Assembly (NCBI RefSeq): GCF_044647545.1
Contig: NZ_CP172818.1
Strand: one strand, 5' to 3'
DNA length: 64,000 nt
Source: Escherichia coli
GTDB lineage: Bacteria; Pseudomonadota; Gammaproteobacteria; Enterobacterales; Enterobacteriaceae
Position 1 is the stretch's first letter; each line of letters begins with the position of its first letter. A model generated the notes under the pieces. It was given only the letters and a program-made list of their open reading frames with translations. It ran no database searches and was not told where the DNA came from. Positions 5,193 to 43,344 of the stretch are shown here, one piece after another. Position numbers and translations under genes: made by a program.

Positions 5193-5349
5193 TATTGCCG
5201 TGACGAAGCAACAGCAATGCTTACGCATAACCATAGCGAAAATAGTGTCGCAGTGTAAGGTTGTTGTGAATATTGAGTTGCAAATATGTCGGTGTTTGCT
5301 GGTGATTTGAACAATATGAGGATAAAGCCCTCATGACGAGGGCTTAACA

Positions 5350-8591: not shown

Positions 8592-9608
8592 TTAATCGGG
8601 ATATCCCTGTGGATGGCGTGACTGCCAGTGCCAGGTGTCCTGCGCCATTTCATCGAGTGTGCGCGTTACGCGCCAGTTCAGTTCACGGTCGGCTTTGCTG
8701 GCGTCCGCCCAGTAGGCCGGAAGGTCGCCCTCGCGACGCGGTGCAAAATGATAATTAACCGGTTTGCCGCAGGCTTTGCTGAAGGCATTAACCACGTCCA
8801 GCACGCTGCTGCCTACGCCAGCGCCGAGGTTGTAGATGTGTACGCCTGGCTTGTTCGCCAGTTTCTCCATCGCCACGACGTGACCGTCCGCCAGATCCAT
8901 TACGTGGATGTAATCGCGCACGCCAGTACCGTCTTCGGTCGGATAATCGTTACCAAAAATCGCCAGCGAGTCGCGACGGCCTACAGCAACCTGGGCGATG
9001 TATGGCATCAGGTTATTTGGAATGCCTTGCGGATCTTCGCCCATATCGCCCGACGGATGTGCGCCAACCGGGTTGAAGTAGCGCAGCAGGGCAATGCTCC
9101 AGTCCGGCTGGGCTTTTTGCAGATCGGTGAGGATCTGTTCCACCATCAGCTTGCTTTTGCCGTAAGGGCTTTGCGGTGTGCCGGTCGGGAAGCTTTCAAC
9201 ATATGGAATTTTGGGCTGATCGCCATAAACGGTGGCGGAGGAGCTAAAGATAAAGTTTTTGACGTTAGCGGCGCGCATGGCGCTAATCAGGCGCAGAGTA
9301 CCGTTGACATTGTTGTCGTAATATTCAAGCGGTTTTTGTACCGATTCGCCAACGGCTTTCAGCCCGGCGAAGTGGATCACGGTGTCGATAGCGTGATCGT
9401 GCAGGATCTCGGTCATCAACGCTTCGTTACGGATATCGCCTTCAACAAACGTTGGATGTTTGCCGCCTAAACGCTCGATAACAGGCAGTACGCTGCGCTT
9501 ACTGTTACAGAGGTTATCAAGAATGATGACATCATGACCGTTTTGCAGTAATTGCACACAGGTATGACTTCCAATGTAACCGCTACCACCGGTAACCAGA
9601 ACTCTCAT
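8592..9608 (-). CDS. galE: UDP-glucose 4-epimerase
   Basis: Start chosen at MRVLVTGGSGYIGSH (NAD-binding Rossmann motif); the longer ORF to 9650 would begin inside the gal promoter. Confidence 0.95.
   Translation of the reverse strand: MRVLVTGGSGYIGSHTCVQLLQNGHDVIILDNLCNSKRSVLPVIERLGGKHPTFVEGDIRNEALMTEILHDHAIDTVIHFAGLKAVGESVQKPLEYYDNNVNGTLRLISAMRAANVKNFIFSSSATVYGDQPKIPYVESFPTGTPQSPYGKSKLMVEQILTDLQKAQPDWSIALLRYFNPVGAHPSGDMGEDPQGIPNNLMPYIAQVAVGRRDSLAIFGNDYPTEDGTGVRDYIHVMDLADGHVVAMEKLANKPGVHIYNLGAGVGSSVLDVVNAFSKACGKPVNYHFAPRREGDLPAYWADASKADRELNWRVTRTLDEMAQDTWHWQSRHPQGYPD
9574..9589 (-). promoter_or_regulatory. gal internal operator OI (GalR/GalS)
   Basis: atgtaaccgctaccac (complement GTGGTAGCGGTTACAT) inside the first codons of galE. 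Confidence 0.75.
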
Positions 9609-9868: not shown

Positions 9869-11341
9869 TCAGTTTATTTTTGTCAGCGCATAGCGATAAA
9901 AGTCACCGTCCGGCACGAACTCCAGACGATGGGTAATACAGGCAGGCGCATCTTCAGCGTGGTGCGAAACAAACAACAATTGCGTTTCACCTTCGCTAAT
10001 CAGCACATCAACAAAACGGCGGATAAGCTGGCGATTGAGCGGGTCCAGCCCCTGTAGTGGTTCATCGAGAATAAGCAACGTCGGATGTTTCACCAGTGCG
10101 CGGACGATCAGCGCCAGACGCTGCTGTCCCCAGGAAAGACTATGGAACGGAGCGTCAGCCGTGCGTTTATCAATACCGAGAATATCCAGCCACTGCTGCA
10201 CCAGTTTTTGCTGGCGATCCGAAACGGCCTGATAAATGCCAATCGAATCAAAATAGCCAGAAAGAATCACATTACGCACGGTAGTGCTGACCCGGTAATC
10301 CAGATGCAAACTACTGCTGACGTAACCGATATGCTTTTTGATATCCCAGATGGTTTCGCCGCTGCCGCGACGTCGTCCGAAAAGCGTCAAATCGTTGCTG
10401 TAACCTTGCGGATGATCGCCAGTAATCAGGCTTAATAACGTCGATTTTCCCGCGCCATTTGGCCCGACAATTTGCCAGTGTTCGCCTGGATTCACCTGCC
10501 AGCTAAGGTTATTAAGAATGGGGCGATCGTTATAAGAAACCACGCCGTTGTTCAGCACAATGCGCGGTTCGTTGGCGGGTAAGGCGTGACGTGCTGAAGG
10601 TTCATCCGGCTCCGGCAGTTGCACACCTTCAAGCTGTTCGCTATGTGCCAGTTGCGCGACGAGTGCTTGTTGGAGCAGTTCTTCTTTAGCGCCAGTTTCC
10701 GCTAACGTGCAATCCGCCAGCACGCCAGCAAACTGGACAAATTCTGGGATCTCATCGAAGCGATTGAGCACCAGTACCAGAGTAATACCGGACTGATGTA
10801 ACGAGGCGAGTAGCTCAGCCAGCTGCTGACGTGAGGCAACATCCAGGCCATCGAACGGCTCATCAAGAATCAACAAGTCAGGCTCCGACATCAGCGCCTG
10901 ACACAGCAGGGTTTTTCGCGTCTCGCCAGTGGAAAGGTATTTAAAGCGTCGGTCGAGGAGGGCGGTAATACCGAACTGCTGCGCCAGTTGCATGCAACGC
11001 GGAGTATCCTTTACTTCATCCTGAATGATCTCAGCCGTGGTACGCCCGGTGTCATCTTCGCCAGGACTAAGCATATCGGTGTTATTCCGCTGCCATTCGT
11101 CGCTGACGAGCTTTTGCAATTGCTCGAAGGAGAGACGAGTGATGTGGGAAAACTGGCTTTGCCGTTCACCTTTCAAAAGCGGAAGTTCCCCCGACAGCGC
11201 GCGGGCCAGCGCCGATTTCCCGCTTCCATTCGAACCGACAAACGCCCAACTATCACCCGCGTTTAACGTTAGCCGAGGCAATTGCAGCGTTTTTGTGTCG
11301 CCAAGACGAAACGTGCCTTGCAAAATTTGCAACGATGACAT
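9869..11341 (-). CDS. modF: tandem-domain ABC ATPase ModF (no permease domain)
   Basis: Two Walker A motifs (GSNGSGKS, GPNGAGKST) and two ABC signatures (LSTGETRK, LSWGQQRL) in one ORF; start chosen at MSSLQILQG. Confidence 0.9.
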   Translation of the reverse strand: MSSLQILQGTFRLGDTKTLQLPRLTLNAGDSWAFVGSNGSGKSALARALSGELPLLKGERQSQFSHITRLSFEQLQKLVSDEWQRNNTDMLSPGEDDTGRTTAEIIQDEVKDTPRCMQLAQQFGITALLDRRFKYLSTGETRKTLLCQALMSEPDLLILDEPFDGLDVASRQQLAELLASLHQSGITLVLVLNRFDEIPEFVQFAGVLADCTLAETGAKEELLQQALVAQLAHSEQLEGVQLPEPDEPSARHALPANEPRIVLNNGVVSYNDRPILNNLSWQVNPGEHWQIVGPNGAGKSTLLSLITGDHPQGYSNDLTLFGRRRGSGETIWDIKKHIGYVSSSLHLDYRVSTTVRNVILSGYFDSIGIYQAVSDRQQKLVQQWLDILGIDKRTADAPFHSLSWGQQRLALIVRALVKHPTLLILDEPLQGLDPLNRQLIRRFVDVLISEGETQLLFVSHHAEDAPACITHRLEFVPDGDFYRYALTKIN

Positions 11342-38777: not shown

Positions 38778-39734
38778 TCACATCGCCGCTTCATTTTTCG
38801 CCCGCAGCTTCTTCGCCTGGCTTTCCAGTACCAGATAGCAAACCAGCGCCAGCAGCAGCGGGATAAAGTAATACAGCACACGGTAAGCGAGTAGGGCGGC
38901 GATAATTGTGCCCTTGGATGTATGCTCCCCAGCCAGTAGCGCGATAAACACCGCTTCCAGCACACCAATCCCCGCTGGAATATGCACGATGACGCCAGCA
39001 ATACTACTAACCAGTAACACGCCCAGTACAAAGAAATAGTTCACGCTTTGACCAAGTAACAGCCAGATAATCGCCCCCATTACCATCCAGTTAACACTGG
39101 AAATCAGCATTTGGGCGAGGGCGAATTTCCATGAAGGCAGCACCAGTTTTTGTCCTTTGATGGTCATATGGCGGTGCTTCGCGAAAGCGCAAAACCACAA
39201 ATAAACCGCGATAATCATCAGTAAGCCAATGCCGAGAATGCGCAGCGTGGTTTGATCGACATACCAGTGGTCCGGCAACTCCACCACGCCTGCGGTAAAG
39301 ATAACCCCCGCTAGCAAAATATAGCCTAGCCAGTTGGTGGTAATACTGAGCGAAAAAATCCGCGTAATAGTGCTGCCCGGTAACCCCAGTCGGGAGTACA
39401 AACGATAGCGCATACCAATGCCGCCGACCCAGGTACTGAGTGTCAGGTTGAAGGCGTAGCAGATAAACGACACCAGCATCACCTGGCGCTTCGCCAGTTT
39501 GTGACCGCAGTAGAAACGGGCGAGCAGGTCGTAGCAACCGTAAATCAGATAACTGACGACCACCAGCCCGACCGCACTAAGCAGCGCAACGCGATTGTAG
39601 TCGCGGATGACCTTCCAGACCTCTTCCCAGTCCACTTTTTTGGCGTAGACCACCAACAACACAATCACCGCGATAAAAAACAGCCAGGTGAGGAGTTTCT
39701 TTGCTAAGCGCCAGCGTGGGTGTGATTTACTCAT
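38778..39734 (-). CDS. ybhN: inner membrane protein, MprF-like flippase-type domain (UPF0104)
   Basis: 318-aa polytopic ORF; start overlaps the clsB stop. Confidence 0.9.
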   Translation of the reverse strand: MSKSHPRWRLAKKLLTWLFFIAVIVLLVVYAKKVDWEEVWKVIRDYNRVALLSAVGLVVVSYLIYGCYDLLARFYCGHKLAKRQVMLVSFICYAFNLTLSTWVGGIGMRYRLYSRLGLPGSTITRIFSLSITTNWLGYILLAGVIFTAGVVELPDHWYVDQTTLRILGIGLLMIIAVYLWFCAFAKHRHMTIKGQKLVLPSWKFALAQMLISSVNWMVMGAIIWLLLGQSVNYFFVLGVLLVSSIAGVIVHIPAGIGVLEAVFIALLAGEHTSKGTIIAALLAYRVLYYFIPLLLALVCYLVLESQAKKLRAKNEAAM

Positions 39735-40975
39735 CAGGGTTTTACCCCCGTGTTTTCAGTTTCTACCCGATCCTGCGTTTCCATTGTCGGTTGTGCGGGG
39801 GGATCAACCTGCGCCAGACGTGGCGTGTGTGCCGGAAGCCAGCCAACCAGCGCCGGGAAGTGGCGTAAAAAGTGGAACGCCAGCACGCTTTTAGTCAGGT
39901 TCCACCAGGTGCGTTTGGGCAGCATGGTTTCATCCACCTGCTGACAATCTGCGGCGATGATGCCGTTCAGATTATCGCGCAGCGTCTGGTTAAAATGACG
40001 ATCGTGGATGATGACATTTGCTTCGAGATTCAGTGACAAACTGAGCGGATCGAGATTACTGGACCCTACTGTCGCCCAGTGATCGTCCATCAATGCTACT
40101 TTGCCGTGGAGCGGGCGGCGGCGGTACTCAAAAACCTGAACGCCGCCTTTAACCAGATAGTTATACAGCAAACGCGCACCGACTCTGACAATCGGCATAT
40201 CCGGTTCGCCCTGAATGATCAGTTTGATCCGCACCCCGCGCCGTGCCGCTTTACGCAAGGCGTGTAAAAATCGATAGCCGGGGAAGAAGTAGGCGTTGGC
40301 GATAATCACTTCTCGCCGCGCCTGAGTGAGCATTTTCAGATAGTGACGTTCAATATCATCGCGATGTTCTTCGTTATCGCGCCAGACCAGCAATACCTGC
40401 GCTTCTCCCGGCTGGCGGTTCTCTTCCGCTTTGTGATGACGTCGCCACCAGCGTCGTGCCGCGCTCTGTCCTGGCAGGTTTTCCAGTTCAAATTGCAGAA
40501 TATCTTCGACAATCGGCCCTTCAAGGCGCACCGCGTAATCCTGTTTAGCCTCTGGACCGTAGCTGGACATATGCTCGGCGGAGTAATTCAGCCCGCCAAT
40601 AAAGGCGATAAGCGCGTCGATCACCACAATTTTGCGATGCATCCGGCGAAACACATTGGTGCGCATACCAAAAAGGCGCGGGCGGGGATCGTAGTAGCGA
40701 AATACCACGCCAGCTGCCGTCAGTTCATTGACAAACTCATCGCTGAGATCCGGCGAACCGTAGCCATCCAGCAAGACTTCCGCTTTCACCCCGCGTTGCG
40801 CTGCTGCCAGTAGCGCCGCATGCAGCTGTTTGCCGACGTCATCCTCAAACCAGATAAACGTTTCAAGAATGATGCGTTCTTGCGCCTCGCCAATCGCCTT
40901 AAACACCGCGGGATAATATTGCTCGCCGTTTTCCAGCAACTGGATCTTATTGCCTTCGCGCCAGCTACATTTCAT
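39734..40975 (-). CDS. clsB: cardiolipin synthase B (phospholipase D family)
   Basis: 413-aa ORF with two HKD motifs (HRKIVVID..., [20 protein letters not shown]); start overlaps ybhP stop. Confidence 0.95.
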
Positions 40976-41733
40976 AAATGAATCTCCGCACTTAAAGGGG
41001 CATGATCAGAAAGGTGTCGCCATGTCCGCAGCGGCAACGCGGTTGGCGCGCTGGCGCTGGCATTTTTGACGTAGATCCTGTCCAGTCGTAGTAGAGGAAA
41101 TTGCACCGGAAACGTGCGCGCCGGGCGTCCGTGGGCGCGGGTAAAAATCTCATCCAGTCCGGCCTGCACTTTTAACGGATGATTAGCTTTTTGCCGCCAG
41201 TCATTGAAATCACCCGCCACCAATACCGGTTCGCCGTCCGGTAGCTCATTCACCCATTCGGCGAGCATCGCAAGCTGCGCCTGACGGTGCGCCTCACGCA
41301 GGCCCAGATGTACGCACATCACATGAATCGCTTTCCCGGTCATCGGCGGCACAATGCGGCAGTAGAGCACGCCGCGCTTTTCCGCACCATCGACCGAAAC
41401 ATCACGATTCTCATAATGTTCAATGGGATAACGTGAAAGAACCGCATTACCGTGATGTCCTTCCGGGTATACGGCATTGCGACCGTAGGCGAAATCGCTC
41501 CACATGGTGTCGGCGAGAAACTCGTAGTGCGAGGTATCGGGCCAGTTTTCCACATGCAGCGGATGAACTTCGTGCGCGCCCATCACTTCCTGCAGGCAAA
41601 CAATATCGGCACTGACGGTACGCACGGCGTCGCGAAGTTCCGGCAAAATGAAGCGTCGGTTAAACGCGGTAAAGCCTTTGTGAATATTGATGGTGAGCAC
41701 CTTGAACGAAAATTGTTGTGTTTGATCGGGCAT
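40972..41733 (-). CDS. ybhP: endonuclease/exonuclease/phosphatase (EEP)-family protein
   Basis: 253-aa ORF, first gene of ybhP-clsB-ybhN. Confidence 0.92.
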
Positions 41734-41865
41734 AATTTTCCTGTCTTTGCCTCTTATCTCATTGAAATAGTGTAGTCGGCGTCACAAAAAGGTGCGGTCT
41801 TACGGAATTTTCCGTAAAGTTCGGTACTCTGAATAAGTAGAGATAAATTCTTCAGGAGAGAAGCC

Positions 41866-42276
41866 ATGAAGTGGCAACAACGTGTTCGTGTCGCAACGGG
41901 TCTAAGTTGCTGGCAGATTATGTTGCATTTACTGGTAGTGGCGCTGCTGGTGGTGGGCTGGATGAGTAAGACTCTGGTTCACGTCGGCGTGGGATTATGC
42001 GCACTGTATTGTGTCACGGTAGTGATGATGCTGGTGTTTCAGCGCCACCCCGAGCAACGCTGGCGTGAGGTGGCAGACGTGCTGGAAGAGCTGACCACGA
42101 CCTGGTATTTTGGTGCAGCGCTGATTGTGCTGTGGCTGTTGTCCCGCGTACTGGAAAACAACTTTTTGCTGGCAATTGCAGGGCTGGCAATCCTTGCTGG
42201 CCCGGCGGTAGTGTCTTTGCTGGCGAAAGATAAGAAGTTACATCACCTTACGTCTAAACATCGCGTACGCCGCTGA
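41866..42276 (+). CDS. ybhQ: small inner membrane protein
   Basis: 136-aa ORF with four hydrophobic segments and RBS; 3' end overlaps ybhR 3' end by 39 nt. Confidence 0.85.
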
Positions 42277-43344
42277 CCCTGTCGTGGCCGTTATCACCAG
42301 TAGCGGCCACAAACTATTCCACACAATATCCAGACTCGCATCCTTCAAATAAATCTGCTTGGTAATGTCCGTAAAGTGGCGAATAGGGTTAATCCACGTC
42401 AGATTTTGCAGCCACACTGGCATGTTTTCCACCGGCGAAACGTAACCGGAAAGGAGAATGGCGGGCATCATAAAGACAAACACGCCGATAAACGCCTGCT
42501 GTTGTGTCGAGCAGAGTGATGAAATCAACAGACCGAAGCCTACCAGCGATAAACCGTAAATCACCATCGTAAAGTAGAACAGCGCCAGCGATCCGGCGAA
42601 GGGGATTTGATACGCCCAGATACCAATCGCCAGCACAATGGTGGCCTGGAAGGTGGCGACAATTAATGCCGGTACGGCCTTGCCGATGAATATCTGCCAG
42701 GTGGTGAGCGGCGAAACCAGTAACTGATCGAGCGTACCTTGTTCACGTTCGCGGGCGACGGAAAGTGAAGTGACGATCATTACGCCGATAGTGGTGATCA
42801 TGGCGATCAGCGACGGCACCACAAACCATTTGTAGTCGAGATTCGGGTTATACCAGTTGCGTACCACCAGCTCGCTGTTGTTGGGTTTCGGTTTTCCTTC
42901 CAGCAGCTCCTGCTGATAATTTTTGACGATCTGTTGCAGGTAGTTGGCGGCAATTTGCGCACTGTTGGAGTTACGCCCGTCTAGGATCAACTGTAACGGC
43001 GCGGTCTGGAAGGTATCCAGTTTGCGCGAGAAGTCAGCCGGGAAACGCACCAGGAGTAACGCCTTTTGTGTGTCGATGGTCGGGCGGATCTCCTGCGGGC
43101 TTTTCAGCAGCAGCACATGGGTAAAGGCGCTGGCGCGGGCAAAACGTTGGGTCAGCTCCACCGAATGCTCGCCGTTATCTTCATCGTAGATGGCGATGGT
43201 GGCGTTAGTCACTTCCAGCGTGGCGGCGAACGGGAACAGGATCACCTGAATCAGCACGGGTAAAATAAGAATCGCACGGGTTTGCGGTTCGCGCAGCAGC
43301 GACTGCAACTCTTTGCGGATTAACGTCCATAAGCGATGAAACAT
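42238..43344 (-). CDS. ybhR: ABC-2 type transporter permease
   Basis: 368-aa membrane ORF, last gene of cecR-ybhGFSR; paralog of YbhS. Confidence 0.94.

Follow-up and report, generated by a model that had tools for sequence, protein, structure and literature searches.

How do two convergent genes end their transcripts when the coding sequence of each runs into that of the other? The question is raised by ybhQ and ybhR of Escherichia coli, which lie tail to tail within a stretch of 64,000 nucleotides from contig NZ_CP172818.1 (hereafter the window, to which all coordinates refer unless K-12 is named). The open reading frame listing of the window gives the following arrangement:

41866..42276, + strand: ybhQ coding sequence, a small inner-membrane protein of 136 aa (Pfam PF11076), with its last 12 codons and stop within ybhR
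42238..43344, − strand: ybhR coding sequence, an ABC-2 permease of 368 aa and final gene of cecR-ybhGFSR, with its last 12 codons and stop within ybhQ
42238..42276, both strands: dual-strand coding segment of 39 nt, codons in exact register, its length kept in 74 of 80 species

The original prediction of a 39-nt tail-to-tail overlap is confirmed by this listing and by RefSeq, which annotates the same coding sequences and the same overlap both in E. coli FDAARGOS_497, to which the region is 100% identical, and in K-12 MG1655 (ybhQ b0791, 824630..825040, +; ybhR b0792, 825002..826108, −). The shared segment codes on both strands, making ybhQ and ybhR a convergent overlapping pair, and the codons of the two genes are exactly aligned, with position 1 of one facing position 3 of the other. 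At 42238-40 the ybhR stop TAA reads as the Leu125 codon TTA of ybhQ, and at 42274-76 the ybhQ stop TGA reads as the Ser357 codon TCA of ybhR. The further claim, that no space for a terminator separates the genes, also holds; a scan for promoter and terminator consensus sequences found no terminator-like site in or adjoining the overlap, and no σ70 promoter there. No re-annotation shifts the ybhQ stop upstream, which would have dissolved the overlap. The region was found in 5423 of 5426 complete E. coli genomes. Within a single genome the overlap is no statistical surprise: as ybhQ stops are possible only opposite ybhR TTA, CTA or TCA codons, which account for 14 of the 368 codons of ybhR, a 12-codon stop-free run has a probability of about 0.63, and about 75 convergent coding overlaps are reported in E. 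coli (PMC4161906). The overlap is thus real, conserved and already known, through standard annotation, a published excludon list and a published 3' end.

To what extent the arrangement is shared was assessed by scanning one genome per species, from which 80 Enterobacteriaceae loci were retained. Of these, 74 have an overlap of exactly 39 nt, among them Escherichia, Salmonella, Citrobacter, Enterobacter, Leclercia, Kluyvera, Cedecea, Mangrovibacter, Siccibacter and other genera, with YbhQ identity as low as 59%. It is directly visible in 70 loci, while the 74 include four in which the ybhR assembly is frameshifted but its tail still yields 39 nt. Five loci (L042, L046, L067 and two from Pluralibacter, L061 and L077) are without overlap and have a gap of 0–34 nt, and the remaining locus has an assembly gap at this point. 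The fixed length across genera exceeds chance, and these comparisons indicate an ancient overlap. Several records deserve separate mention. The frameshift-split ybhR of L022, L031, L035 and L066, which include Leclercia adecarboxylata NCTC13032 and Kluyvera genomosp. 3, has an intact overlap and 3' tail, and the splits may be sequencing errors or pseudogenes. L042 (CACSKA010000002.1) bears the label Chryseobacterium sp. 18061, but its ybhQ-ybhR locus is typical of Enterobacteriaceae and near-identical to that of Citrobacter sp. 18056 (L046), and mislabelling or contamination of the record is probable; in these two loci ybhQ stops 33–34 nt short of ybhR, with a separate GC hairpin in the spacer. 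Neighboring genes overlap on the same strand, as at L001, where, in coordinates of that locus, ybhN/clsB share 1 nt (4035), clsB/ybhP 4 nt (5273-5276), ybhS/ybhF 8 nt (8782-8789) and ybhF/ybhG 8 nt (10511-10518), which is typical operon packing.

YbhQ itself belongs to a narrow family, with 66 matching representatives at 50% clustering, many of them fragmentary. A distant YbhQ (40% identity, 128 aa) is encoded in a 3.46-Mb genome (GCA_964016415.1) in the gene order moaE-ybhL-ybhQ-rhlE. This genome has no ybhR, and the ybhP-clsB-ybhN and cecR-ybhGFSR blocks are both missing, so that the YbhQ protein predates or outlives the ybhQ-ybhR arrangement. Two more distant homologues lie on contigs too short to contain neighboring genes.

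Which of the two proteins holds the shared sequence in place? Variability at ybhQ codon positions 1, 2 and 3 of the overlap is 0.84, 0.25 and 0.40 bits, which matches ybhR-only sequence (0.84, 0.22 and 0.45 bits) and does not match ybhQ-only sequence (0.75, 0.58 and 1.46 bits). Substitutions in the overlap therefore follow the ybhR reading frame, which dominates. The proximal five YbhQ residues of the overlap vary freely, residues 126-130 tracking the synonymous drift of ybhR Arg, Lys and Val/Ile codons (for example T, A, S or P from CGN). A different pattern is seen in the distal half:

42256..42276, both strands: distal half of the overlap, YbhQ K-H-x-[V/I]-R-[R/H]-stop opposite YbhR S-A-A-Y-A-M-F

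Here ybhR third positions are near-invariant (S358 TCA, 68/68; A359 GCG; A360 GCG, 67/70; F364 TTT, 68/70), a degree of invariance reached by only 3.8% of 182 four- and six-fold codons in the remainder of ybhR, where the mean is 1.12 bits, and synonymous variability is the second lowest of 332 ybhR windows. The ybhR Tyr codon opposite the YbhQ V/I site varies freely (TAC 41, TAT 29), the resulting change in YbhQ being merely V/I. Radical changes of the YbhQ tail are thus avoided and conservative ones tolerated, which speaks for selection at the protein level on K-H-x-[V/I]-R-[R/H] and the stop. The ybhQ frame limits ybhR synonymous sites in the distal seven codons only, stop included: as read from these alignments, YbhR constrains the whole overlap, and YbhQ its last six residues (K131-R136) and stop. 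In none of the species sampled has the ybhQ stop simply been lost and the reading frame lengthened; in two species ybhR Ser has become Leu (CTA) and the ybhQ stop is retained as TAG. In the lineages without overlap, the corresponding ybhR codon is TCG, GCA or GCG in four of five, with TCA kept in L067, and the YbhQ tails are still basic, with His or Arg at the end.

With no intergenic space, the signals that end each transcript must lie inside the coding sequence of the other gene. Transcript ends were taken from published K-12 tables, the K-12 and window sequences being identical over 42199-42402, and were combined with structures found in the window:

42284..42310, + strand: stem-loop with an 11-bp stem and 5-nt loop, GUGGCCGUUAU-CACCA-GUAGCGGCCAC, about −18.5 kcal/mol
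42307..42351, + strand: C-rich, G-poor stretch, candidate rut site (16 C and 2 G in the 40-nt window 42307-42346)
42316, + strand: ybhQ mRNA 3' end, mapped from K-12 825080
42418, + strand: peak of a Rho (bicyclomycin) region antisense to ybhR (K-12 825182; Rho score 3.95, p 5e-7; PMC7815308)
42165, − strand: peak of a Rho (bicyclomycin) region antisense to ybhQ (K-12 824929; Rho score 3.85, p 2e-7; PMC7815308)

[quoted passage not shown] 2021 (PMC7815308, Supplementary file 1), at K-12 825080 (+), was observed in two of three growth conditions and classed as primary for ybhQ and antisense to ybhR. It lies 40 nt beyond the ybhQ stop, 79 nt into ybhR and 6 nt past the stem-loop. Since the ybhR mRNA must contain its own stop at 42238 and the ybhQ mRNA reaches 42316, the two are complementary over at least 79 nt. 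The prediction that the transcripts are complementary at their 3' ends is therefore borne out, and the contrary outcome, in which both would end before the overlap, is contradicted by the published ybhQ end. A second published Term-seq end, at 41926 (+) (K-12 824690), falls 60 nt inside the ybhQ reading frame and is listed for one of three conditions, with a Rho score of 0.6 and an intrinsic-terminator score of 4.9; it may reflect premature termination or processing.

The ybhQ 3' end directly follows a stem-loop that lacks a U tract, the sequence behind the stem being AAACUAUUCC. Such a precise steady-state end, just past a stable stem-loop without U's and with a rut site just downstream, was described for Rho-dependent transcripts by Dar and Sorek 2018 (PMC6061677), and would place the ybhQ end among Rho-dependent terminators with a protective stem-loop. 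The second element of this class, Rho-dependent read-through together with downstream C-rich, G-poor sequence, is present as well, in the published score of 3.95 at 42418 and the stretch at 42307-42351. The base bias of this stretch is kept across species, where ybhR has low synonymous variability, and we infer that it is a Rho rut site on the ybhQ transcript. On the opposite strand, the peak at 42165, 73 nt beyond the ybhR stop, likely marks the end of ybhGFSR operon transcription. Both termination positions are coarse, as the Rho scores derive from 800-nt windows. The data of PMC7815308 contain no curated 3' end for the ybhR transcript, and a scan of synonymous sites made evident no conserved structure within ybhQ that would mark one: upstream of the overlap, the synonymous positions of ybhQ change freely (1.3–1.9 bits).

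The stem-loop begins 7 nt past the ybhQ stop and occupies ybhR codons W346-T354. It is present in nearly all loci, with 95% of cells across the comparison paired. Two stem pairs change on both sides, one from GC to AU (in Mangrovibacter) and the other from CG through UG to UA, a weak covariation signal given that 56 of 500 shuffles yield an equal count of double-sided pairs, and some stem bases are set by the conserved YbhR residues W-P and A-A-T. Codon usage is more telling. The stem codons include the rare CTA (51/70) and the rare ATA (59/70), along with invariant GCC and CCG, and the window containing the hairpin has the lowest synonymous variability in ybhR (rank 1 of 361), the adjoining windows (alignment columns 334-345) also being among the lowest. 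Four-fold sites beside the stem and in the loop reach 1.4–1.9 bits. CTA (Leu348) and ATA (Ile351), at 42293-42304 (−), appear to be kept because both form the inner pairs of the hairpin. The same CTA constitutes the next in-frame ybhQ stop (TAG), 8 codons beyond TGA. In these alignments, ybhR codon usage is the stronger evidence for selection on the hairpin, and covariation is modest. An Rfam search over 41600-42800 returned no matches at E <= 1, and folds of the whole region were not more stable than shuffled sequence (z = −0.70 and +0.48), the local hairpin alone standing out. We propose that it is a putative protective stem-loop for the 3' end of the ybhQ mRNA.

These observations suggest a model in which a dual-coding overlap is combined with transcript-ending signals placed inside the opposing coding sequences, and to which we assign a probability of roughly 75%. 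Transcription of ybhQ would pass its own stop and enter ybhR, with Rho stopping the polymerase some 100–140 nt on, and the RNA would then be trimmed back to the stem-loop at 42284-42310 to leave the stable end at 42316. Transcription of cecR-ybhGFSR would likewise pass the ybhR stop into antisense ybhQ, to be ended by Rho near 42165. The two mRNAs would always be complementary over at least 42238-42316 (79 nt), and nascent RNA over up to about 150 nt, giving duplexes and hence some double-stranded RNA (dsRNA) to be cut by RNase III. The 3'-end module of ybhQ, consisting of protective stem, rut-like stretch and Rho zone, would be retained through ybhR synonymous sites. The overlap, its conservation and the signatures of selection are findings of the present analysis; the 3' end, Rho regions and dsRNA are drawn from published data.

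A rival to the model, which strengthens the original regulatory idea, would have the overlap conserved as a selected excludon switch: σE-driven ybhQ transcription under envelope stress would repress or truncate ybhR/ybhGFSR, possibly also in reverse, as RNA polymerases collide and RNase III cuts the 3' duplex. A promoter suited to this role is found upstream of ybhQ:

41804..41832, + strand: σE-type promoter of ybhQ, GGAATTT-N17-TCTGA, 33 nt upstream of the ATG

The element is exact in 56 of 69 distinct ybhQ upstream regions, and its sequence fits the published σE induction: overexpression of rpoE raises ybhQ 5-fold (PMC2731931), and in Salmonella a σE ChIP peak lies between ybhP and ybhQ (PMC4577112). 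Transcript overlap, which such a switch needs, is obligatory here. By this measure ybhQ-ybhR qualifies as a convergent excludon from the literature, both through the Term-seq end at 42316 and through ExcludonFinder (PMC12288877, NAR 2025), whose Table 1 of 165 convergent excludons, each present in 50% or more of 58 RNA-seq samples, includes the pair. The tight tail-to-tail order is also kept, at 0–34 nt, in the five lineages that lack the overlap.

dsRNA is found on both genes. In p19-captured material from four replicate libraries, ybhQ yielded 205–342, ybhR 230–354 and ybhS 16–30 RPM, and in two other libraries about 30, 25 and 12 RPM (Huang et al. 2020, PMC7373196), so that both genes exceed ybhS by a factor of about 10 in four of six libraries and of about 2 in the other two, as per-gene values that carry no positions. 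In wild-type total RNA, sense and antisense reads were 111/5 RPM for ybhQ, 14/24 for ybhR and 16/1.2 for ybhS (PMC7373196); antisense reads thus exceed sense reads on ybhR. In the same libraries ybhN (window ~38780-39736) was very rich in p19 dsRNA, with 985–1255 RPM in three of the four replicates and 434 RPM in the remaining one. Antisense to ybhN there is also a published region of Rho termination, at K-12 821989 (+), or 39225 in the window, and together these suggest a strong antisense transcript across ybhN.

Against a selected switch, neither sense mRNA rises when RNase III is lost: in two rnc mutants, ybhQ goes from 111 to 99 and 65 RPM, and ybhR from 14.2 to 11.6 and 6.2 RPM (PMC7373196). 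The suggestion of RNase III-dependent mutual regulation is accordingly not supported so far, and a regulatory effect is unproven. Reports of opposing expression of ybhQ and ybhR were not found in the literature, the ExcludonFinder authors failed to validate convergent excludons with p19 data (PMC12288877), and the selection signatures are fully accounted for by coding of the YbhQ tail and formation of the ybhQ 3' end. We therefore regard the switch as doubtful. Its fullest form is less probable still, namely that the fixed 39-nt overlap and the embedded ybhQ terminator were selected for envelope stress, with σE-induced ybhQ polymerases and antisense RNA entering the ybhR 3' end and lowering the YbhFSR exporter, so that the YbhQ protein and the efflux pump become mutually exclusive across Enterobacteriaceae. 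A regulatory role for the antisense overlap is possible, if unsupported; any consequence would be modest and mostly one-way, from the more abundant, σE-inducible ybhQ transcript onto the ybhR 3' end.

The hairpin could instead be conserved for the benefit of ybhR and its operon mRNA, where it might act with the rare codons CTA and ATA to slow ribosomes close to the final transmembrane helix, or might stabilise an operon 3' end produced by processing. The stem, a palindrome, can form on either strand, contains both rare codons, and keeps its outer 8 bp in four of the five lineages in which ybhQ ends before ybhR. However, the sole mapped 3' end is a + strand end, 6 nt past the stem, which the published table assigns to ybhQ as primary, and it is only on the + strand that conserved C-rich sequence comes after the stem. 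A − strand RNA that ended at the stem would lack the ybhR stop codon, which is another 44 nt downstream. This explanation is very unlikely.

The symmetric, GC-rich character of a stem placed between two convergent genes also brings to mind a bidirectional intrinsic terminator that stops both polymerases. We rejected this candidate as highly improbable, since flanking U or A tracts are absent on both strands (AAACUAUUCC on + and GACAGGGUCA on −) and the terminator scan has no match at the hairpin; moreover, a stop there on the − strand would truncate ybhR, and Rho-dependent read-through is published for both strands. Finally, that one of the two tails is an annotation artefact and not truly translated, as the odds of a chance 12-codon open run (about 0.63) and the ybhR-only pattern of proximal substitutions might suggest, was rejected as scarcely credible, given a ybhQ stop that cannot be re-annotated upstream, both stops kept in 74 species, the TAG that survives the ybhR Ser TCA to Leu CTA change in two species, invariant ybhR synonymous sites opposite the YbhQ terminus and a basic His/Arg tail on YbhQ even in non-overlap lineages.

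Returning to the preferred reading, in which each transcript is ended by Rho inside the opposing gene, how does the locus compare with known systems? It shares with convergent excludons (PMC12288877) the opposite-strand neighbors with 3'-overlapping transcripts, and is itself listed among them, but most of these overlap in their 3' UTRs only, with a mean intergenic distance of 95 nt, whereas ybhQ and ybhR overlap in coding sequence; the likeness is by transcript overlap alone, the hallmark of an excludon being opposing expression. As in the terminators of Dar and Sorek (PMC6061677), a precise end a few nucleotides past a stem-loop is accompanied by rut-like C-rich sequence and bicyclomycin-sensitive read-through, but the ybhQ module is contained wholly inside the coding sequence of a convergent gene and is kept by synonymous sites and rare codons. 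Other convergent coding pairs in E. coli (PMC4161906) show the same tail-to-tail overlap, of a kind attributed to stop-codon movement; ybhQ/ybhR differs in a length fixed at 39 nt across genera and in the constraint from both frames in its distal half. The mscL-arfA pair (PMC10070815) is likewise an E. coli convergent 3' antisense overlap that involves one membrane-protein gene and is in the excludon list; antisense regulation is reported there for mscL-arfA, whereas ybhQ-ybhR is known from sequence and published transcript tables.

What the present analysis adds, namely conservation across genera, constraint from two frames and an embedded, conserved Rho-type terminator, is incremental and belongs to known classes, and the overlap is of little import in itself, having been annotated and catalogued and its 3' end mapped. 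The consequences for work on either gene are practical. A ybhQ deletion that takes out 42238-42276 would truncate YbhR, and the ybhQ mRNA would probably be harmed by deletion or "silent" recoding at the 3' end of ybhR, so that caution is needed in interpreting the knock-out phenotypes of both genes. Were the σE link regulatory, envelope stress would be tied to an ABC efflux system. More generally, ybhQ/ybhR provides a worked example of how, once convergent genes have lost their spacer, the synonymous positions and rare codons of one can hold a complete Rho-type 3'-end module for the other, and indicates that such a module, made of a stem-loop and a C-rich loading region, can persist there for a very long time.
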